Shown piece after piece: positions 20,490-29,548 of a DNA stretch of 64,000 bases. The stretch is from assembly GCF_024700885.2 (NCBI RefSeq), contig NZ_CP117014.1. One strand, given 5' to 3'. Position 1 is the stretch's first letter, and each line of letters begins with the position of its first letter. The notes under the pieces were generated by a model. That model saw nothing but the letters and a program-made list of their open reading frames with translations, was not told the origin of the DNA and ran no database searches. The stretch comes from Escherichia coli (GTDB lineage Bacteria > Pseudomonadota > Gammaproteobacteria > Enterobacterales > Enterobacteriaceae). The position numbers and the translations under genes are program-made.

Positions 20490-21257
20490 TCACCCCATAG
20501 ATATCGAGGTTTCGGTAATAATACGTTTTGCGTCCAACTCCCATGCTGTGATCACGTCTGTAATCACACTTATCGGCGCTTGTGTGGCATAAATACGCTC
20601 TTCTCCAATTGGTGCTGAAACATCCGTAAAGCCGACTTCTTTGGCATCCTGTATCGAGCAAATCAGCGGGACCGGGACACGAACAAGGTGAGTGGTTGCT
20701 TCAAATTGTGTACCTGTCATCAGGCGAAGCCGTGCGCCCAGCGAATTACACATCAGACTCATGGTCGCTTTATCAGTTGCCATTAACGTAACGTCATACG
20801 TCAGAATGGCCTGGGTGTATTCCAGTTCTGCTAAAGGCATTCCGGTATCCGGTTCGCAAAAACTGGCTACTTTTTTGCGGTCAATCTGCTGATCATCGTT
20901 GATATAATTGATATCCATAGTGCGTGAGATATTGACCAGGGGGAGAGCATCCCGGTTAATGTTCTGGTTTTCAGGTTTTCTCCCTTGCCCGGCATTTGCG
21001 CGACGAACTGCTTTAAGAAACTCGATCGCATTGTCGAAACGGGCCACATAGACACGCTCTGCTGGTGGACGATTCAGGAATGACGCAAAGCGTTTTTCTT
21101 CCGGCGCGGGGGCCACCAGTAAGATATCAGAAAAGATATTGCTGATTAGCGTAGCAAACGCGTTATCCACGTTTTCAAAGCCCGTGGTCTGGAATTTCCC
21201 TGTGCGTGAGGTTTGCCATTCACCTGTTCGCGCCAGGAGGGTTTTATTTGAAGTCAT
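20490..21257 (-). CDS. Putative baseplate/tail protein (255 aa)
   Basis: ORF in same operon. Confidence 0.3.
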   Translation of the reverse strand: MTSNKTLLARTGEWQTSRTGKFQTTGFENVDNAFATLISNIFSDILLVAPAPEEKRFASFLNRPPAERVYVARFDNAIEFLKAVRRANAGQGRKPENQNINRDALPLVNISRTMDINYINDDQQIDRKKVASFCEPDTGMPLAELEYTQAILTYDVTLMATDKATMSLMCNSLGARLRLMTGTQFEATTHLVRVPVPLICSIQDAKEVGFTDVSAPIGEERIYATQAPISVITDVITAWELDAKRIITETSISMG

Positions 21258-22087
21258 TCGATCACTCCGTTTTGAGTCGTATCAAAATTTCTGGCAGGTA
21301 TGCAGTAGTAAAGCGAACCAACATGTTGTGTGCCGTAGCTAAAAATACGGTGCACGTACCACCAGCGGCGGGCTACGCCGTTTACCATCTCTTCATTCCA
21401 TTCAAGAATTGATCCGACGGGGACGTTATTTGCTGCAATACGCAGAATCAGAACATCATCGGTTAAGCCATCCTGCTCACCGTCTGCGTCAATCGCATGG
21501 AAAGAGTCACGCCCGTCAGGGTTATCCAGCACATAAACGATTTCAGGTTCCTGGTAAGTCAGTTCGCGTTGGTTGTTATCCAGTTCAGTGAATGACTCTT
21601 CTCCTGTTTCGTCGCTGACTACCCCATATGTGCCAACATCTGGTCGATATAAGAGAGCCTGAAACGCGTCTGGGCTGGATTCAATAATCAGCATCCAGTC
21701 TGCGCGGATTTGGTCGTTAAAGGCTTTATGCCCGTTATAGCGTGCTTTTAGCTGTGGCGTCGGTTCTCTGCCAGCCAAGGAAGGTGGAAGTATGGCTATA
21801 TCTGATTCGCCAGCGTCCGGAGTAAGGCCACCGTTGCTATCAGCAAAATTATCATGGCTATCAGCTTCGGCGGTGGATTGCTCTTCCAGAATGCTGAATG
21901 AATCCGGTCCGGCATTGCCATGTTCCGGCGCGCTTCCTGCATCCGCTTCAACCGTCGCTGGCGTTTCTCTCTGCGTGCTGTCATGTTCTGACTCCTTACT
22001 TGCCAGGTTTGCATCGTCAGCAAACCATTCGTCAAAACGGCCCATAAGCATCCTCAAAGGTCGATTTATCAGGTATCGAGGGTGCAT
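21254..22087 (-). CDS. Putative baseplate/tail protein (277 aa)
   Basis: First ORF of operon, overlaps next gene by 4 nt. Confidence 0.3.
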   Translation of the reverse strand: MHPRYLINRPLRMLMGRFDEWFADDANLASKESEHDSTQRETPATVEADAGSAPEHGNAGPDSFSILEEQSTAEADSHDNFADSNGGLTPDAGESDIAILPPSLAGREPTPQLKARYNGHKAFNDQIRADWMLIIESSPDAFQALLYRPDVGTYGVVSDETGEESFTELDNNQRELTYQEPEIVYVLDNPDGRDSFHAIDADGEQDGLTDDVLILRIAANNVPVGSILEWNEEMVNGVARRWWYVHRIFSYGTQHVGSLYYCIPARNFDTTQNGVIE

Positions 22088-22190
22088 TGTCTGGAGATTG
22101 TGATTTCAATTCATATCCCAGCATGGGACTAAAGTGCTTTACATTGTCCCATATTGGAACTACTATACTTTCAGTGAGAAGGAATCTGTG

Positions 22191-22493
22191 ATGAAAATAA
22201 TTTCGGTAAAAACACTAAGGGATTTTTGGGCGAAGAATCCCGATGCAGAACAGCCTTTAAAGGCATGGGTTGATGAAGCAACAAAGGCTGACTGGAAAAA
22301 TCCGGCTGAGATCAAAGAACAGTACCGGACAGCCAGCATCCTTAAAAACAGGCGCGTGGTGTTCAATATTAAGGGAAATGATTACAGGTTAATTGTCGCA
22401 ATTGCTTATCAGCGAGGATGGATGTTCGTTAAGTTTATTGGAACACACAAGGAATACGATGCCATTGACGCGGATACAATAGAACTGGAGTAA
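22191..22493 (+). CDS. higB: HigB-family type II toxin (RelE/ParE fold)
   Basis: 100 aa with conserved ...FNIKGNDYRLI...FIGTHKEYD pattern; toxin-first gene order. Confidence 0.75.
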   Translation: MKIISVKTLRDFWAKNPDAEQPLKAWVDEATKADWKNPAEIKEQYRTASILKNRRVVFNIKGNDYRLIVAIAYQRGWMFVKFIGTHKEYDAIDADTIELE

Positions 22494-22496
22494 ATC

Positions 22497-22856
22497 ATGA
22501 ACATTAAACCTATCCGTACAGAACAAGATTATGAGGCCGCACTGCGTGCGGTCGAACCGATGTTCGATAACGAACCGGAAATGAACACCCCGGAAGGTGA
22601 TTTCTTTGAGGTCATGTGTCTTCTCATTGAGGAGTACGAGAAAAAACATTACCCAATTGAGCCACCATCACCTATTGAAGCCATTAAATTCCGCATGGAA
22701 CAGCAAGGGCTGACCGTGAAGGATCTGGAACCGGCAATTGGTAAGTCAAACCGTGTTTACGAAGTGCTTAATGGGACACGAAATTTGACGTTACCTATGA
22801 TTCGTCGTTTACATGCCCAGTTTGGTATTCCACTGGAAAGTCTGGTTGGTGTTTAA
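22497..22856 (+). CDS. higA: HigA-family antitoxin (XRE-type HTH)
   Basis: 119 aa, starts 4 nt after higB stop; C-terminal HTH-like segment (GLTVKDLEPAIGKSNRVYEVLNG). Confidence 0.75.
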   Translation: MNIKPIRTEQDYEAALRAVEPMFDNEPEMNTPEGDFFEVMCLLIEEYEKKHYPIEPPSPIEAIKFRMEQQGLTVKDLEPAIGKSNRVYEVLNGTRNLTLPMIRRLHAQFGIPLESLVGV

Positions 22857-22916
22857 GTTTTGCGGTCTGGATGACCGCTTTTACATAAAATCAATGTTTA
22901 AATATTTGGTAATTAT

Positions 22917-23648
22917 ATGAGCGCTGATTCATCAATAGAAAAGGAAAACCCCTCTACCAAAAATCTGTTAGAAGACGCTGTAAAAGATAAGTTGTTTAAT
23001 AAGGTTTTTGCCTATATTTTTATTTCATTTTTAATTTCTAACTGGCAAGAAATATTGATTTTGTTTAAATCAAAATATGATATATACACAACACTATCTA
23101 TAGTATGGATTGGTGACAAATATCAAGTCCCTTATTTGGGAACCTTCATTGTACCTCCGTTTTTAGCTCACTTTGTTATGCCGTTTATATATGGCACTGT
23201 TGCGTCCATAGTAATGCCTTATATTACTATGCGTATATCAAAACTAACTGGTAGAAATTATGCGCAAATAAGACATATTGACCGTGAATTTGACTCAAAA
23301 GAGCAAGCAAGATTAGATGAGTTACAGAAAGAAATAGAACAAAAAAAAGATGAGCGTTTAAGTCTAGAAAAGAAAATAGAAGATCAACGTAAATCATTGG
23401 CTAAAATTGAAGGTGAAAAGAAAGAAGTTGAGGACGCTAGAATATCCCTGTTTTATGGGATAAAGGCAATAGTTGATATATATGAAACCAAAGGCGAAAG
23501 CATTTCCACCCAAGAGGATTTTGCTGATTTACTAAAGGCAGTCGAACAAACTGATTTTTATAAAGATACAGGTTTATACGGTATTAATAAATTGGTAGAT
23601 GATGTAAAAAGAATATACGAACATCAATCTATCTTAAATGATAAGTAA
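22917..23648 (+). CDS. Membrane protein with 2-3 N-terminal transmembrane helices and a long charged coiled coil (243 aa)
   Basis: Strongly AT-rich gene; hydrophobic segments (FAYIFISFLISNWQEILILF; FIVPPFLAHFVMPFIYGTVASIVMPYITM) then E/K-rich heptads. Confidence 0.5.
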   Translation: MSADSSIEKENPSTKNLLEDAVKDKLFNKVFAYIFISFLISNWQEILILFKSKYDIYTTLSIVWIGDKYQVPYLGTFIVPPFLAHFVMPFIYGTVASIVMPYITMRISKLTGRNYAQIRHIDREFDSKEQARLDELQKEIEQKKDERLSLEKKIEDQRKSLAKIEGEKKEVEDARISLFYGIKAIVDIYETKGESISTQEDFADLLKAVEQTDFYKDTGLYGINKLVDDVKRIYEHQSILNDK

Positions 23649-23677
23649 TAACATAGGCGGGATAACCGCCTATGTTA
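23648..23677. terminator. Bidirectional hairpin between convergent genes
   Basis: TAACATAGGCGG-gataa-CCGCCTATGTTA inverted repeat. Confidence 0.45.
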
Positions 23678-23681
23678 TCAA

Positions 23682-24878
23682 TCAAGAACCTTTCTTCACA
23701 TACTCCATGAACATTTTTTCAGCCTGCTCAGGTGACGTTCCTGCCATGACAAGCGCATCAATGAACGCCTGCTTCTTCAGTGCGAACTGATCGGCAAGGC
23801 GTTGCTGAAGCTCCTTGTTTTTCTGTTTCTCACGTTGCAAGGCCGCTTCTTTTGCTGCCGCCCGTTTTTTCTGTGCGTCTGACAACTTTCTGGCTTTGGT
23901 CAATTGGTCACGTAGCTTGTCAATTTTGCCGTTGTCCTTTGCCAGTTTTGTGCTTAAAGCGGCCTGGCGCTTCTGATAGAGCCTCCATTCGCGCTTGGCA
24001 GCGTCAACGTTTGTTTTACTGTTGCGATTGCGATTAAACTCCCTCTCGTCTTCTTTTGAGAAGTGTTTGGTTGTACGGCGGCGATCGTCACCAAATGCAA
24101 TTTGCGTTGCGGCCTTTTGTAACGCACGAGCAATACTCATTTGCCAACTGGCGGACTGTAACCGCGTCATTGAGTGGATCACGTGTTTACAGGCGACGCC
24201 TTGTAGCTTAGGGTTACGAACTTTTGGATAGGCGTATTCTTTTGGCGGGGCCAGGGCAAAGTTACCTGCAGTAGCGATGTAACGATACCAGTATTGATGA
24301 CGACCACAGTCACAATCGAAAGACACCCGCCCAGCGCACAGTGATTTAGTGATTTTCAGAGCTGATTTATCGTCTTCTGCGATGTCATCGACCATCTGAT
24401 CCCATTCTTCAAAGCGTATCCGGACGATATGGTGCTGGTGGACGGATATATCCGATGCTTCTACGCGGATATTAATCACGTTGTGGCGAAGAGATACGGG
24501 TGTAGCTCTTTTGATACCAGATCCGTCATCCACGGCGTTATTTGCACGCTTAATATCGATTGCCTGGCTGGATGCCACCAGCTGGGCGTATGTGATGCCA
24601 GCCGTCTTGCTGTCATATTTTTCGCGTGTTTTACTCCGTAGCTTTTCGAAACCTTTCAGGTCGTCTCGCGTGAAGAACGTGCCGCCTTTTTTCTTCCCTA
24701 ACTTGAGAATATCTTCGGCGGATTTGTTCCTCAGTCTACCTGGCGTCAGCGTCCGGTGAGCTTGTCGGCGCTTACGGGTTTGTTCTTTCCTGATAAGGTC
24801 GAATAAACGCGTGAAGTCCTTAGAGGACAGGCCGTCAGTGATATAGCGCCCGTCCTGGTTTTTCAGGAAATCAGGCAT
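23682..24878 (-). CDS. SWIM-type zinc-finger protein with basic N-terminus and K/R/Q-rich coiled-coil C-terminus (398 aa)
   Basis: CDCGRHQYW...(25)...CKHVIH matches a CxC-Xn-CxH SWIM finger. Confidence 0.45.
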   Translation of the reverse strand: MPDFLKNQDGRYITDGLSSKDFTRLFDLIRKEQTRKRRQAHRTLTPGRLRNKSAEDILKLGKKKGGTFFTRDDLKGFEKLRSKTREKYDSKTAGITYAQLVASSQAIDIKRANNAVDDGSGIKRATPVSLRHNVINIRVEASDISVHQHHIVRIRFEEWDQMVDDIAEDDKSALKITKSLCAGRVSFDCDCGRHQYWYRYIATAGNFALAPPKEYAYPKVRNPKLQGVACKHVIHSMTRLQSASWQMSIARALQKAATQIAFGDDRRRTTKHFSKEDEREFNRNRNSKTNVDAAKREWRLYQKRQAALSTKLAKDNGKIDKLRDQLTKARKLSDAQKKRAAAKEAALQREKQKNKELQQRLADQFALKKQAFIDALVMAGTSPEQAEKMFMEYVKKGS

Positions 24879-25508: not shown

Positions 25509-26162
25509 TCAAAGTATCACGGTATCTTCATCAACTTCTTTCCCAGCCAGTGACTTTGGCTGGGAGGTGCCTGCTTTAACTTTTTCATGCCCAATAATGG
25601 ACAGGAACGAAGCGAGTATGCCTGTTTTTTGCTCTTTCTCGACTGTACCGGTCATCTGCTCTACATAATCTGCACTGGCAACGTTGTGGTATACGGTCGC
25701 GTAGCAACACAGGATCATCAAAATATGCTCCGGCCTGATATCCTGCCAGTTCACCCTGTAGACTTCTTCTCCGTTACCGTTGTATTCGGTATCAACGATA
25801 GAGTCGGGGATTTCGAAAGCACCTTTGTTATTTTGCGGCAGGGATAATAGTTTCTGGAGTTTTAACTCTCTGTATCTTTCCATCCCAACGATGATTGCTG
25901 CTCTACCATCGGCATGACGGGTCTTGAGAGTCACCTGGCTTGCTCCGGTGCCAGCGGAGATCGTTGGCGTAATTTCGTCTACTAGAACCTTAAATTTGCT
26001 TTTCCGCAGGGCTGCTATAGCTGGAGGAATTTTTTGCTTTTGCTCCAATGCTGACGCGGGAAGGGGTTTTACTTCGTTAATAATGAGAGCACCGTCTTTC
26101 AGTATTGCAGTGAGCATTTGAGGCTTGCTGGTGGTCAGGCTGAATATTGCGATCTTTTCCAT
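25509..26162 (-). CDS. Hypothetical protein (217 aa from ATG 26162, GGAGGAAGG RBS)
   Basis: Track ORF extends to 26204 but a strong RBS precedes the internal ATG and a terminator hairpin occupies 26197-26213. Confidence 0.4.
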   Translation of the reverse strand: MEKIAIFSLTTSKPQMLTAILKDGALIINEVKPLPASALEQKQKIPPAIAALRKSKFKVLVDEITPTISAGTGASQVTLKTRHADGRAAIIVGMERYRELKLQKLLSLPQNNKGAFEIPDSIVDTEYNGNGEEVYRVNWQDIRPEHILMILCCYATVYHNVASADYVEQMTGTVEKEQKTGILASFLSIIGHEKVKAGTSQPKSLAGKEVDEDTVIL

Positions 26163-26189
26163 TTTCCTTCCTCCACGGATGACGGATAC

Positions 26190-26213
26190 AAAAAAAGGCC
26201 GCACATGGCGGCC
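26190..26213 (-). terminator. Rho-independent terminator (minus strand)
   Basis: GGCCGC-acat-GCGGCC with A7 on plus strand = U7 tail on minus. Confidence 0.5.
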
Positions 26214-27555: not shown

Positions 27556-28185
27556 TCATTTTTGTCGGATCTTTTCCAGCATATTTAATTCATTATCACT
27601 TTCTGCTGCTGAGACGGTTGGCCTCACATTTCCGAAATATTTCCTGTGAGACTCATGACTTATGTATTCACCGACAGTTTCATTCTTGAATATACGAATT
27701 TGACATATGCGAGATCCAACAATAAGTTCTACAGGGCTATTCCCATGATTAAATAACTCTAAAGATATACAGCCTCTGTACCCTGGTTGTATCATGGTAT
27801 TTAATGAAAGACCAAGCCTTGTATAGCTGCTTCTGGACAATACATCAGCGTAGCAATCTGGTGGCAAACAAACATATTCTAATGTTGTTGCCAGTACCAC
27901 TTGATTCGGGTAAACAATGAACCTATCCCCAAGATCTCTCCTTGTTTCCTGGAAAAATGTTCTGATTGGTTGATGAGTATCATTGTTTTTTGAGGGAATT
28001 AACTCTATTGACGGCTTCCTTGTCATAATAGACACTAAAAAATCGTAACCAAGTCTAAGGTCTATGGTGAAGTTTCCAATTTGGTTTTTATTTAGAAGAG
28101 GTTCAATGAACAACGACTCAGGTTCTTCTGATTCATAATATTGCAGCAATTCAGCTTTGCTTAGGAGATTCATTGTGCACTCCAT
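27556..28185 (-). CDS. dCTP deaminase (Dcd/dUTPase-fold) homolog
   Basis: 209 aa collinear with E. coli Dcd: IDLRLG, LATTLEYVCLP, RSSYTRLGL, GYRGCISLELFNHG; putative catalytic Ser/Arg/Glu conserved. Confidence 0.7.
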   Translation of the reverse strand: MECTMNLLSKAELLQYYESEEPESLFIEPLLNKNQIGNFTIDLRLGYDFLVSIMTRKPSIELIPSKNNDTHQPIRTFFQETRRDLGDRFIVYPNQVVLATTLEYVCLPPDCYADVLSRSSYTRLGLSLNTMIQPGYRGCISLELFNHGNSPVELIVGSRICQIRIFKNETVGEYISHESHRKYFGNVRPTVSAAESDNELNMLEKIRQK

Positions 28186-29243
28186 TTTTCAAGAATCATT
28201 ACGTTTCGAATCGATTTTTCAACCAAATCATTTATAGTTTTTTCTATGGCTTCTTTTGACAACCCAGACCATATACCCGTAGGTTTTTCCCATTCAGAGC
28301 ATAAGTACTGCCAGCTGCTGTTAATAAAAGCATGCATTTCATTGTGGTCGCGAATAACAAAAGGACGCACATTATCAAAAGCTGATTTCACATCAAGCAA
28401 AGGTGTCGGCAATGTCAAACAAGGAGAAATAATCTGCCCACCCTTATGTAAGGCTGATATCACAGCATTGAACATGCCAACAACTGGATTTTCCACTTTG
28501 TTCAAAAAGTCGCTTACAATTTTAACTCTATCTTCTGTGGATGGGTGAGTATAGCTTGCAGGATGAGAGCCAGCTAATTTGTATAAGAAATCTACCCCAC
28601 TTTTTCCAATAAATTGGGCACTAAATAGATCTGCAAAATATTCTCTGCAATGATTTATCCAAATAACATCAGGTAGATTACTCCATTCTGGTCCTGGAAG
28701 TGTGCCTTTGTCCTTGGAACGATAGTTAAGACAGGCAAGCTCAGAAATACCTTTGCTAATATCAACGAAATGTCCCAATTCGTGATATAAAGGTATAGAG
28801 CATAATGGTCGTCTTCTGTACATTTCAGGTAATGAAATCTGAATTAATTCGACCTCGAATTTGACATTTAAAACTTCATCAAATAAAGAATACAAATTCT
28901 TGTTTACAGACTTAAAATAAAACCCATGCATATCTGGAGATAGGGCTGTGGTTATAAGTGTTTTTTCACTTATCCATTTTTTACAGGCATCATTTAAGCA
29001 ATAAACAATCTCGTAGGGAATTTTCTTTGTAGTACTGCCAGTGAAAAAATTAACTGCATCGGTGATAAAAAAAGTACAATCCGCAATTATTTTATCAGCA
29101 ACATTCACATGGTTTTCATAGAGCTTATCTACCGCTTCTTGTAGAACAGCAAGATATTCATGCATGTCTTTAGAAAAATAGGGAGATTCTGATATCTCCC
29201 TTAGCTTATTTCGAACTAATGTAAGTTGTGTAAATGCAAGCAT
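28170..29243 (-). CDS. HExxH zinc metallopeptidase-like protein (ImmA/IrrE-like motif)
   Basis: 357 aa; HELGH at residues 154-158 with downstream EYFADLFSAQFI; 16-nt overlap with Dcd-like gene. Confidence 0.5.
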   Translation of the reverse strand: MLAFTQLTLVRNKLREISESPYFSKDMHEYLAVLQEAVDKLYENHVNVADKIIADCTFFITDAVNFFTGSTTKKIPYEIVYCLNDACKKWISEKTLITTALSPDMHGFYFKSVNKNLYSLFDEVLNVKFEVELIQISLPEMYRRRPLCSIPLYHELGHFVDISKGISELACLNYRSKDKGTLPGPEWSNLPDVIWINHCREYFADLFSAQFIGKSGVDFLYKLAGSHPASYTHPSTEDRVKIVSDFLNKVENPVVGMFNAVISALHKGGQIISPCLTLPTPLLDVKSAFDNVRPFVIRDHNEMHAFINSSWQYLCSEWEKPTGIWSGLSKEAIEKTINDLVEKSIRNVMILEKWSAQ

Positions 29244-29548
29244 TAAATGTACTCTAATACATTCCGGGCCATTACGGGTTCTAACATATCTTCGCTAGTT
29301 ACTTTGGTTAGCACCTGGGCGAGCGCCTTAGTGTGGCGTATCTCTACCGCGAGCGAGATGGACTCTCTGTGAGAAGGAATCTGTAATTGATCACCTTTAT
29401 CTACACTTAAGTTTGAGGCTTCTCTGATCACCTCATAAACCCGTAACTTTAACTGCTGTGACACTTCTTGTTGAGATGCTATAAGCTGAAGTACAGTCTT
29501 GATTAACTTCAAAGAATCAGAAGCTTGCTGAGGAACCGCATAGAGCAT
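29243..29548 (-). CDS. Small hypothetical protein (101 aa), first gene of the three-gene operon
   Basis: Stop overlaps start of the metallopeptidase gene; predicted all-alpha. Confidence 0.4.
   Translation of the reverse strand: MLYAVPQQASDSLKLIKTVLQLIASQQEVSQQLKLRVYEVIREASNLSVDKGDQLQIPSHRESISLAVEIRHTKALAQVLTKVTSEDMLEPVMARNVLEYI

Follow-up and report, generated by a model that had tools for sequence, protein, structure and literature searches.

A variable coiled-coil membrane gene in a cargo hotspot of D6-like phage-plasmids: a candidate exclusion or abortive-infection protein

The stretch of DNA considered here, hereafter the window, comprises 64,000 nucleotides of the Escherichia coli contig NZ_CP117014.1 and belongs to a D6-like, P1-related phage-plasmid of E. 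coli. Between its homologues of the P1 tail genes 7 and 25 lies a gene (22917..23648, + strand) that encodes a 243-amino-acid member of phrog_8191, a protein family without an assigned function, a Pfam model or a structure. The gene is genuine and subject to purifying selection, constitutes a discrete cassette in a hotspot, and has alleles that are old lineages recombined into a young backbone. The predicted product is a membrane-anchored coiled coil. Its context and architecture are consistent with a lysogen-expressed inner-membrane protein that would guard the host or the plasmid against other phages by exclusion or abortive infection, a proposal to which we give an even chance of being right. 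Phage-plasmids of the D6-like and P1-like kinds are frequent in E. coli and Salmonella from clinics and livestock and move resistance genes, and the content of their accessory hotspots decides which phages and plasmids are able to coexist with them.

A discrete cassette between two tail genes

In P1 the genes 26-25-7-24-6-5 are contiguous and form one late operon, in which gene 7 begins 3 bp past gene 25. In D6-like elements a 1.6-kb island, encoded on the opposite strand and consisting of a toxin–antitoxin (TA) pair followed by the gene, lies between the homologues of genes 7 and 25. Both of these anchors belong to the conserved backbone: in the window the left one (21254..22087, −), whose counterpart in phage D6 carries an annotation of similarity to P1 gene 7, and the right one (23682..24878, −), 57% identical to P1 gp25, enclose the island. 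The gene itself is flanked by two hairpins. The first, GCGGTCtggatGACCGC (22862-22878) followed by TTTT, resembles a terminator, lies directly after higA (22862..22883, +) and is kept in all E. coli-type alleles. The second (23646..23680, no strand assigned) has a 15-bp stem, is located where the gene and the gene 25 homologue converge and, from its sequence and a scan, resembles a two-way terminator; each allele possesses its own hairpin past the stop codon. The AT-rich spacer of the cassette (22884..22916, +) moves together with the gene's 5' end and would be the site of any promoter of its own. Some D6-like plasmids harbour higBA only. As such gene-less plasmids (for example pTB423) hold a single hairpin where the window has two, the gene and its 38-bp AT-rich spacer form a unit that is either present or absent.

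NZ_CP066033.1, an E. coli plasmid of 97 kb, shares 99.9% identity with the region, and in a search of 5,426 complete E. coli genomes each of the 102 matches resides on a plasmid. In PLSDB an allele is carried by ~98 plasmids of E. coli, Salmonella and Shigella and a gene 25 homologue by 117, the two sets having been counted separately; the gene, the main cargo of the gene 7/gene 25 site, is present in about four fifths of D6-like plasmids. Among 50,697 phage records D6 is the sole match, and P1 and its relatives are devoid of the gene. The D6 protein, orf73, is 39% identical to that of the window and is encoded at the equivalent site, flanked by homologues of genes 7 and 25. The phage-plasmid literature searched does not describe the site as a hotspot, and no paper in it discusses the third gene of the island: a population study of D6-like elements regards higBA as an addiction module and passes over the gene that follows. 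An extra ORF (open reading frame) of 159 amino acids separates the gene from the gene 25 homologue in one D6-like contig (L030 6832-7311), which also has a frameshifted window-type higA; such additional cargo again points to turnover at this position.

The coding nature of the cassette is clear from its reading frame, a single ORF that runs from ATG to TAA. At its composition (A 38%, T 30%, G 18%, C 14%) a run of 243 stop-free codons is expected by chance with a probability of ~4e-10, and the remaining five frames of 22917-23648 contain 10–30 stops apiece. A first-pass annotation of the window had described the gene as AT-rich relative to its surroundings and as lying directly after higBA, and both descriptions hold: the G+C content is 0.314 (0.25 at third codon positions) against 0.472 for the whole window, no other 732-bp stretch of the 64 kb is lower and only 0.08% of sliding windows are equally low, while a gap of 60 bp separates the start codon from the higBA pair. 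The suggestion of recent acquisition that had been drawn from this composition has to be abandoned. Nearly all homologues, whatever their context, are AT-rich, 13–19 G+C points under their flanks in 24 of the 28 loci examined; since low G+C is a trait of the whole family, it is no sign of recent acquisition by this plasmid. Moreover, old, diverged and recombining alleles are found in most D6-like plasmids, and every one of them is AT-rich.

Exchange of old alleles within a young backbone

Across D6-like plasmids and IMG/VR contigs, the anchors and the cargo display very different degrees of conservation. The gene 25 homologue shows 95–100% amino acid identity across D6-like plasmids, the gene 7 homologue 95–100% in most loci and 80–92% in a few, and window-type HigA, where intact, 94–100%. 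The product of the gene, in contrast, is only 36–68% identical to that of the window. The drop in nucleotide identity is confined to 22860-23680, that is, to the interval between the two hairpins. Anchors that are 95–100% identical and adjacent in P1 thus delimit cargo that is 36–68% identical and, in other plasmids, absent or supplemented, which is the pattern of a hotspot.

The window allele is a mosaic. Its spacer and codons 1–40 are 97–100% identical to one allele (L004) and codons 55–115 are 88–100% identical to another (L006), whereas the 3' half is unique and only 65–83% identical to any allele seen. Between alleles the synonymous divergence (dS) ranges from 0.4 to 2.5, and the ratio of non-synonymous to synonymous divergence (dN/dS) lies between 0.15 and 0.35 in both halves of the gene; in one clade the ratio for the C-terminal half rises to ~0.7. 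In situ hypermutation and positive selection were considered as sources of this diversity and rejected: because dS is large and dN/dS stays below 1, the pattern is one of allele exchange.

A membrane hairpin with a long coiled-coil stalk

The protein matches the phrog_8191 profile (PHROGs v4) over its full length (E 4.9e-99, residues 1–242 against positions 1–240 of 242). The family includes D6 orf73, and distant members also match its profile, with E values from 1e-14 to 1e-69. A word-indexed search of 5.8 billion proteins retrieved only 20 clusters, of which the named ones are all from E. coli or Salmonella, and a profile search of 1.84 billion representatives retrieved 73 clusters at E < 1e-3, 26 of them at E < 1e-10, mostly comprising proteins of 205–270 amino acids. 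When a 13-sequence profile was compared with 100,044 species genomes, two loci only were recovered, a Leclercia remnant and a site on an Enterobacter chromosome; plasmids and prophages aside, the family is thus rare.

In an alignment of 38 members the only invariant residues are Asn42, Pro89 and Pro101, and the N-terminal part is characterized by the signature (K/R)(D/E)R-x-x-N..GY....S....NW(Q/E).I..L..S followed by ...P...G.......P..T. An AlphaFold2 model built on 14 close sequences was poor in the membrane part, with a predicted local distance difference test score (pLDDT) of 67, whereas the 38-sequence alignment yielded a pLDDT of 85.7. The elements of the latter model are a helix at residues 12–26, a helix at 29–51 kinked at Asn42, a helix at 56–65, a beta hairpin at 69–77, a helix at 81–192 and a bundle at 199–242.

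Alignment and model together define the parts of the protein. The first hydrophobic helix (residues 30–50; 23004..23066, +) contains the invariant Asn42 within an NW[Q/E] motif. It is followed by a loop (residues 51–80; 23067..23156, +) that comprises the helix 56–65 and the beta hairpin, is predicted to face the periplasm and, in most distant homologues, is without the beta hairpin. The second hydrophobic helix (residues 81–105; 23157..23231, +) harbours the invariant Pro89 and Pro101. Both hydrophobic segments are conserved across the 38 members, with family mean Kyte–Doolittle values of 1.56 and 1.40, and no third is present; the two to three transmembrane helices anticipated in the first-pass annotation are thus reduced to two hydrophobic segments. 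Across the family, lysine and arginine residues average 3.2 ahead of the hairpin and 2.4 past it, compared with 2.2 in its loop of ~21 residues, a distribution that probably favours an N-in/C-in hairpin in the inner membrane. Such a topology would place the stalk and the C-terminal bundle in the cytoplasm.

Continuous with the second helix, a basic juxtamembrane stretch leads into a charged coiled-coil stalk (residues 106–192; 23232..23492, +), which is the section that diverges most between alleles. The long charged coiled coil foreseen earlier finds support: helix 81–192 is uninterrupted in the model, with a pLDDT of 93–98 across residues 111–170, and in heptad register hydrophobic residues account for 52% of a/d positions and 26% of the others. 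The coiled-coil part of this helix measures ~85 residues. The protein ends in a small helical bundle (residues 199–242; 23511..23642, +) with a family-wide D-F...F/L...Y pattern.

Neighbourhoods of distant homologues

Beyond the D6-like plasmids, homologues are encountered in prophages, islands and plasmids of several kinds. In a P2-like prophage the gene is located between gpV and gpS on the opposite strand (P0031), in a lambdoid prophage it lies in the nin region, again on the opposite strand (P0033), and in a P2-like remnant it is found past ogr, the remnant also carrying an AAA_15 and DUF4435 pair that is PARIS-like (P0044). Another copy (P0045, locus L023) has a PDC-S06 gene (E 3e-254) at a distance of 1.3 kb and is accompanied by integrase and portal fragments. 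On an Enterobacter cancerogenus plasmid (L009) the gene adjoins dcm, a type II restriction enzyme gene (E 7e-164) and a colicin operon. A soil-metagenome homologue (P0035) resides in an island with a DNA methylase, DUF1173, DUF4942 and H-NS, and one homologue (P0027) has ordinary chromosomal neighbours. The 243-amino-acid P0055 (L058 5309-6732) is encoded 12 bp downstream of a DUF4145 gene matching PD-T7-4 (E 5e-13), and resolvase and recombinase genes bound the pair; this arrangement may represent a two-gene variant of PD-T7-4, a single-gene system. The neighbourhood pattern suggests cargo that takes part in conflicts between mobile elements, although it is an association and not proof.

The non-phage Klebsiella plasmids form a group of their own. 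In large plasmids of the IncFIB(K) type (L007 5174-6702 and L010 4174-5384) an Enterobacter-type cassette consisting of higB, a gene for a helix-turn-helix (HTH) protein and the gene adjoins the insertion sequences IS66 and IS903B. In many Klebsiella plasmids IS903B cuts the gene after ~137 codons; 55 Klebsiella plasmids were matched in all, and most of those sampled cover no more than 53% of the query.

A candidate exclusion or abortive-infection protein

The first-pass annotation had pointed to abortive infection or superinfection exclusion as the likely trade of a standalone membrane protein of this build. This reading fits all the contextual evidence, and the build and position are as that annotation described; it proceeds from guilt by association and architecture, homology to a known exclusion or defence protein being absent. 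In the scheme that we consider, the gene would be a self-contained accessory ('moron') cassette of the D6-like phage-plasmid, expressed in the lysogen from the strand opposite to the repressed tail operon. The product would reside in the inner membrane with its N and C termini both cytoplasmic; the conserved two-helix hairpin would act on the membrane, while the stalk and the small C-terminal helical domain, where most allelic differences are located, would probably serve oligomerization and confer specificity. Two modes of action can be envisaged. The protein may block genome entry at the inner membrane, as in superinfection exclusion; alternatively, the cytoplasmic part may sense a cue of infection, upon which the hairpin would damage the membrane, an abortive-infection logic of the SieB or RexB kind. 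As ~140 of the 243 residues are predicted to be cytoplasmic and only ~25 to face the periplasm, the model leans slightly towards abortive infection over a block to DNA entry.

Lambda and P22 SieB resemble the protein in size (~190–240 amino acids), in having hydrophobic helices towards the N terminus and, as predicted here, a C-terminal portion in the cytoplasm, and in being encoded opposite to the surrounding phage operon: lambda sieB lies against the pL operon. It is this opposite orientation that allows a protein of the SieB type to be made in the lysogen. SieB aborts the development of superinfecting phages, and an internal start within its gene gives rise to Esc, a self-immunity product. 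SieB differs in having no long coiled coil, and no conserved internal start of the Esc type is evident in the family alignments. A membrane module joined to a cytoplasmic part able to sense or to be activated is also common to RexB and to the two-transmembrane-helix abortive-infection effectors of CBASS, retron and Pycsar systems. These effectors, however, work with a separate sensor or enzyme gene, whereas the present gene usually occurs alone or beside an unrelated TA pair, and no rexA-like gene is found among its neighbours in the window or in the 99.9%-identical plasmid. The site itself has a parallel in the work of Rousset et al. 2022 (PMC9122126), where small, high-turnover loci between conserved phage genes were identified as reservoirs of anti-phage systems and membrane proteins as typical suicide effectors. 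The locus shares with those hotspots its small size (1–5 kb), its high turnover between two conserved phage genes and, through its distant homologues, a presence in P2-like prophages; the phage family and the site are different.

Several observations weigh against a role in exclusion or abortive infection. Sequence searches of Pfam, NCBIfam, PADLOC and the PDB returned only coiled-coil noise (ClpB, SMC-like proteins, LmuB, Mis12 and FosW): in PADLOC the sole match of the 243-residue protein is to the LmuB coiled coil (E 0.0078), Pfam yields nothing beyond such noise for all 38 members, and a PDB profile search with the 38-member alignment gave the same outcome. Matches in the PDB, AFDB and BFVD are likewise uncharacterized relatives or generic coiled coils. 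The earlier remark that the product displays no recognizable motif is thereby upheld, and in the searches made the family is unrelated to known exclusion or defence proteins. The Pfam SieB model (PF14163) matches neither the protein nor any of its 38 relatives, and hhalign assigns probabilities of 0.2% to an alignment with lambda SieB and 0.25% to one with lambda RexB. Much of the allelic divergence falls in the coiled-coil stalk, which tolerates change, and because dN/dS is well below 1 the diversity alone is no proof of an arms race. In the window allele both hydrophobic helices are borderline by hydropathy, with polar residues and prolines, the Shine–Dalgarno sequence is weak and a consensus scan calls no promoter in the AT-rich spacer. 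Finally, hotspots carry non-defence cargo too, including virulence and partition genes (PMC9122126).

This last point leads to the most durable of the alternatives, in which the gene would be a lysogenic-conversion or maintenance factor unrelated to defence, active in envelope physiology, division or stress tolerance, or else a selfish, mildly toxic membrane gene linked to a TA pair. No homology ties the protein to a defence mechanism, its weak, noise-level resemblances include the membrane-anchored coiled-coil division proteins ZapG and DivIC, and the gene is retained on Klebsiella IncFIB plasmids of the virulence and resistance type. On the other hand, deep mosaic polymorphism in a near-identical backbone would be unusual for a housekeeping-like conversion function, and the non-phage neighbours of the family are mainly defence genes. 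The disruption of many Klebsiella copies by insertion sequences suggests, in addition, that the gene is dispensable in those plasmids. We consider a function of this kind unlikely.

A wider proposal extends the exclusion or abortive-infection reading to the whole family: phrog_8191 would be an unrecognized single-gene anti-phage system based on a membrane-anchored coiled coil, whose diverged, recombining alleles would define specificity classes and which would be carried in the hotspots of phage-plasmids, P2-like and lambdoid prophages. This is offered tentatively, with the balance of probability tilted against it. A bolder version would have the TA pair 'guard' or potentiate the cassette, which would explain why the family habitually follows one exchangeable TA module or another. 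If the gene functions in exclusion or abortive infection, it would be another prophage-encoded membrane protein of this type, the defence catalogue would gain a membrane-based family that is new to it, and incompatibility or exclusion among phage-plasmids that circulate together would become easier to approach; if it is not a defence gene, it is still a well-delimited case of cassette exchange inside a late operon. As a candidate it is clean and testable, with a sharp hotspot and allele-exchange anatomy, yet it is one among many such.

The toxin–antitoxin pair: a frequent neighbour, probably not an obligatory partner

In the window the gene follows a HigB toxin gene (22191..22493, +), identified by Pfam HigB_toxin PF09907 (E 4e-34) and by the RefSeq annotation of the 99.9%-identical plasmid, and a higA-type gene (22497..22856, +) that encodes an HTH antitoxin of 119 amino acids with no peptidase domain (phrog_1373, E 1e-43). 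The same order, TA pair then gene, recurs in three diverged lineages of P1/D6-type elements: the E. coli-type D6-like plasmids, the Enterobacter/Klebsiella-type phage-plasmids, in which HigB is 26% identical to that of the window, and a Citrobacter-type P1-like plasmid, in which HigB, the HTH protein and the gene product are 22%, 33% and 23% identical to their window counterparts. Between the Citrobacter and Enterobacter types the TA proteins are 53–54% identical and the gene product only 25%. The order also persists on the non-phage IncFIB plasmids of Klebsiella, with insertion sequences beside or inside the cassette, and in a decayed D6-like remnant on the chromosome of Leclercia sp. 29361 (L050 4146-6351), where higB and the HTH gene precede a copy of the gene that has lost an internal part and encodes 205 amino acids; fragments of the gene 25 homologue come next. 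In Citrobacter-type P1-like plasmids (L053/L054 4781-6714 and L022 4221-5708) the homologue is situated elsewhere in the structural region, co-oriented with its neighbours, and follows either TacA/TacT, a pair with a GNAT toxin, or HigB and an HTH protein; this is a second hotspot with the same order of genes.

This recurrence lends some appeal to the idea that the gene is the third component of a tripartite system of the TA type, as in PD-lambda-2 or CmdTAC, in which, for example, the membrane protein would sense infection and free the toxin, or the antitoxin would control the membrane protein. PD-lambda-2 (Vassallo et al. 2022, PMC9519451) requires its third gene for defence, and its component B is an Xre HTH domain fused to a C-terminal ImmA/IrrE peptidase. 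The window HigB matches PADLOC PD-Lambda-2_A (E 3.4e-42), the HTH protein matches positions 1–119 of the 402-position PD-Lambda-2_B (E 7e-43), and both loci consist of three genes of which the third is not a TA gene. The likeness ends there: the window HTH protein is without the C-terminal ImmA/IrrE peptidase domain, and the third gene encodes a membrane coiled-coil protein and not a P4-antitoxin-like one. Assignment of the locus to PD-lambda-2 was rejected on these differences in components B and C. The window higBA is an ordinary HigB/HigA relative of that system and may be miscalled by automated defence finders.

A functional dependence of the gene on the TA pair is made quite improbable by the way in which the two come apart. 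In P1/D6-type plasmids the partner varies among three families, HigB/HigA, RelE/HigA and TacA/TacT. D6 and the commonest E. coli allele group carry RelE/HigA plus a window-type higA copy that is full, truncated (66 amino acids) or frameshifted, and the gene is intact in common alleles whose higA is truncated or frameshifted. The terminator-like hairpin stands between higA and the gene, and the breakpoints of the alleles are located there as well. The gene occurs without any TA pair in P2-like and lambdoid prophages, on chromosomal islands and on the Enterobacter cancerogenus plasmid, and higBA occurs without the gene. Since the partner is exchangeable and each is found without the other, the TA pair is best regarded as a frequent neighbour rather than an obligatory partner.

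That the gene encodes a lytic-cycle protein (a holin, antiholin, spanin-like protein or tail or injection accessory) lodged by chance in a tail cluster is very improbable: its place between tail genes in D6-like and P2-like phages, the small helical membrane build of the product and one noise-level match to a 'hol-like' PHROG (E 0.0035) are outweighed by its orientation opposite to the interrupted late operon with terminators on both sides, its absence from P1 and relatives and from all of the phage records searched but D6, its absence from some D6-like plasmids, its presence on non-phage plasmids and chromosomal islands, the lack of an adjacent endolysin and a best BFVD holin match of E 6.6. 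The first-pass annotation had stated that homologues confined to phage morphogenesis or lysis modules would refute its reading. Instead, the copies in tail modules are opposite-strand insertions that may be present or absent, and further copies occur elsewhere: Klebsiella plasmids of non-phage type carry the gene, a lambdoid prophage has it in the nin region, and some copies share islands with defence genes; on these grounds the gene is not a holin or morphogenesis gene, and identification with a holin or lysis cassette was rejected. Membership in the SieB, RexB, holin or PD-lambda-2 families is not claimable, each failing on the features tested.

Other features of the region

A sigma-70-like promoter match, TTTACA-17-TACTAT, is found upstream of higB (22138..22166, +) by consensus scan only; at least as many matches of this kind as the region contains are expected from shuffled sequence. 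An Rfam scan of 21900-23900 gave no match. By comparison with the P1 locus (L059 3114-5450), the island (22088-23681 in the window) divides the late operon into 26-25 and 7-24-6-5. Because it splits the operon and ends in a strong two-way hairpin, the D6-like 7-24-6-5 genes would need either a late promoter of their own in 22088-22190 or antisense read-through; no P1-type late promoter was recognized upstream of gene 7, with a single P1 example as guide.

Farther along the window, at ~25509-26204, a homologue of the maturation control gene mat is intact and encodes 231 amino acids, whereas NZ_CP066033.1 (L001 9530-11152) has IS2 inside mat. Judging from the ORF tables, the plasmid of the window seems to be a sibling of NZ_CP066033.1 without the IS2 insertion.

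A second AT-rich island, with a G+C content of 0.34–0.39, extends over 27556-29548 on the (−) strand. Its proteins have no match in PADLOC 2.0. They include one from an ORF of 101 amino acids and one of 357 amino acids with a HELGH motif resembling that of zinc proteases and a weak match to Peptidase_M48; the gene of the latter overlaps that of a 209-amino-acid dCTP deaminase-like protein (Pfam DCD PF22769, E 1.6e-30), which suggests a candidate for defence by nucleotide depletion.

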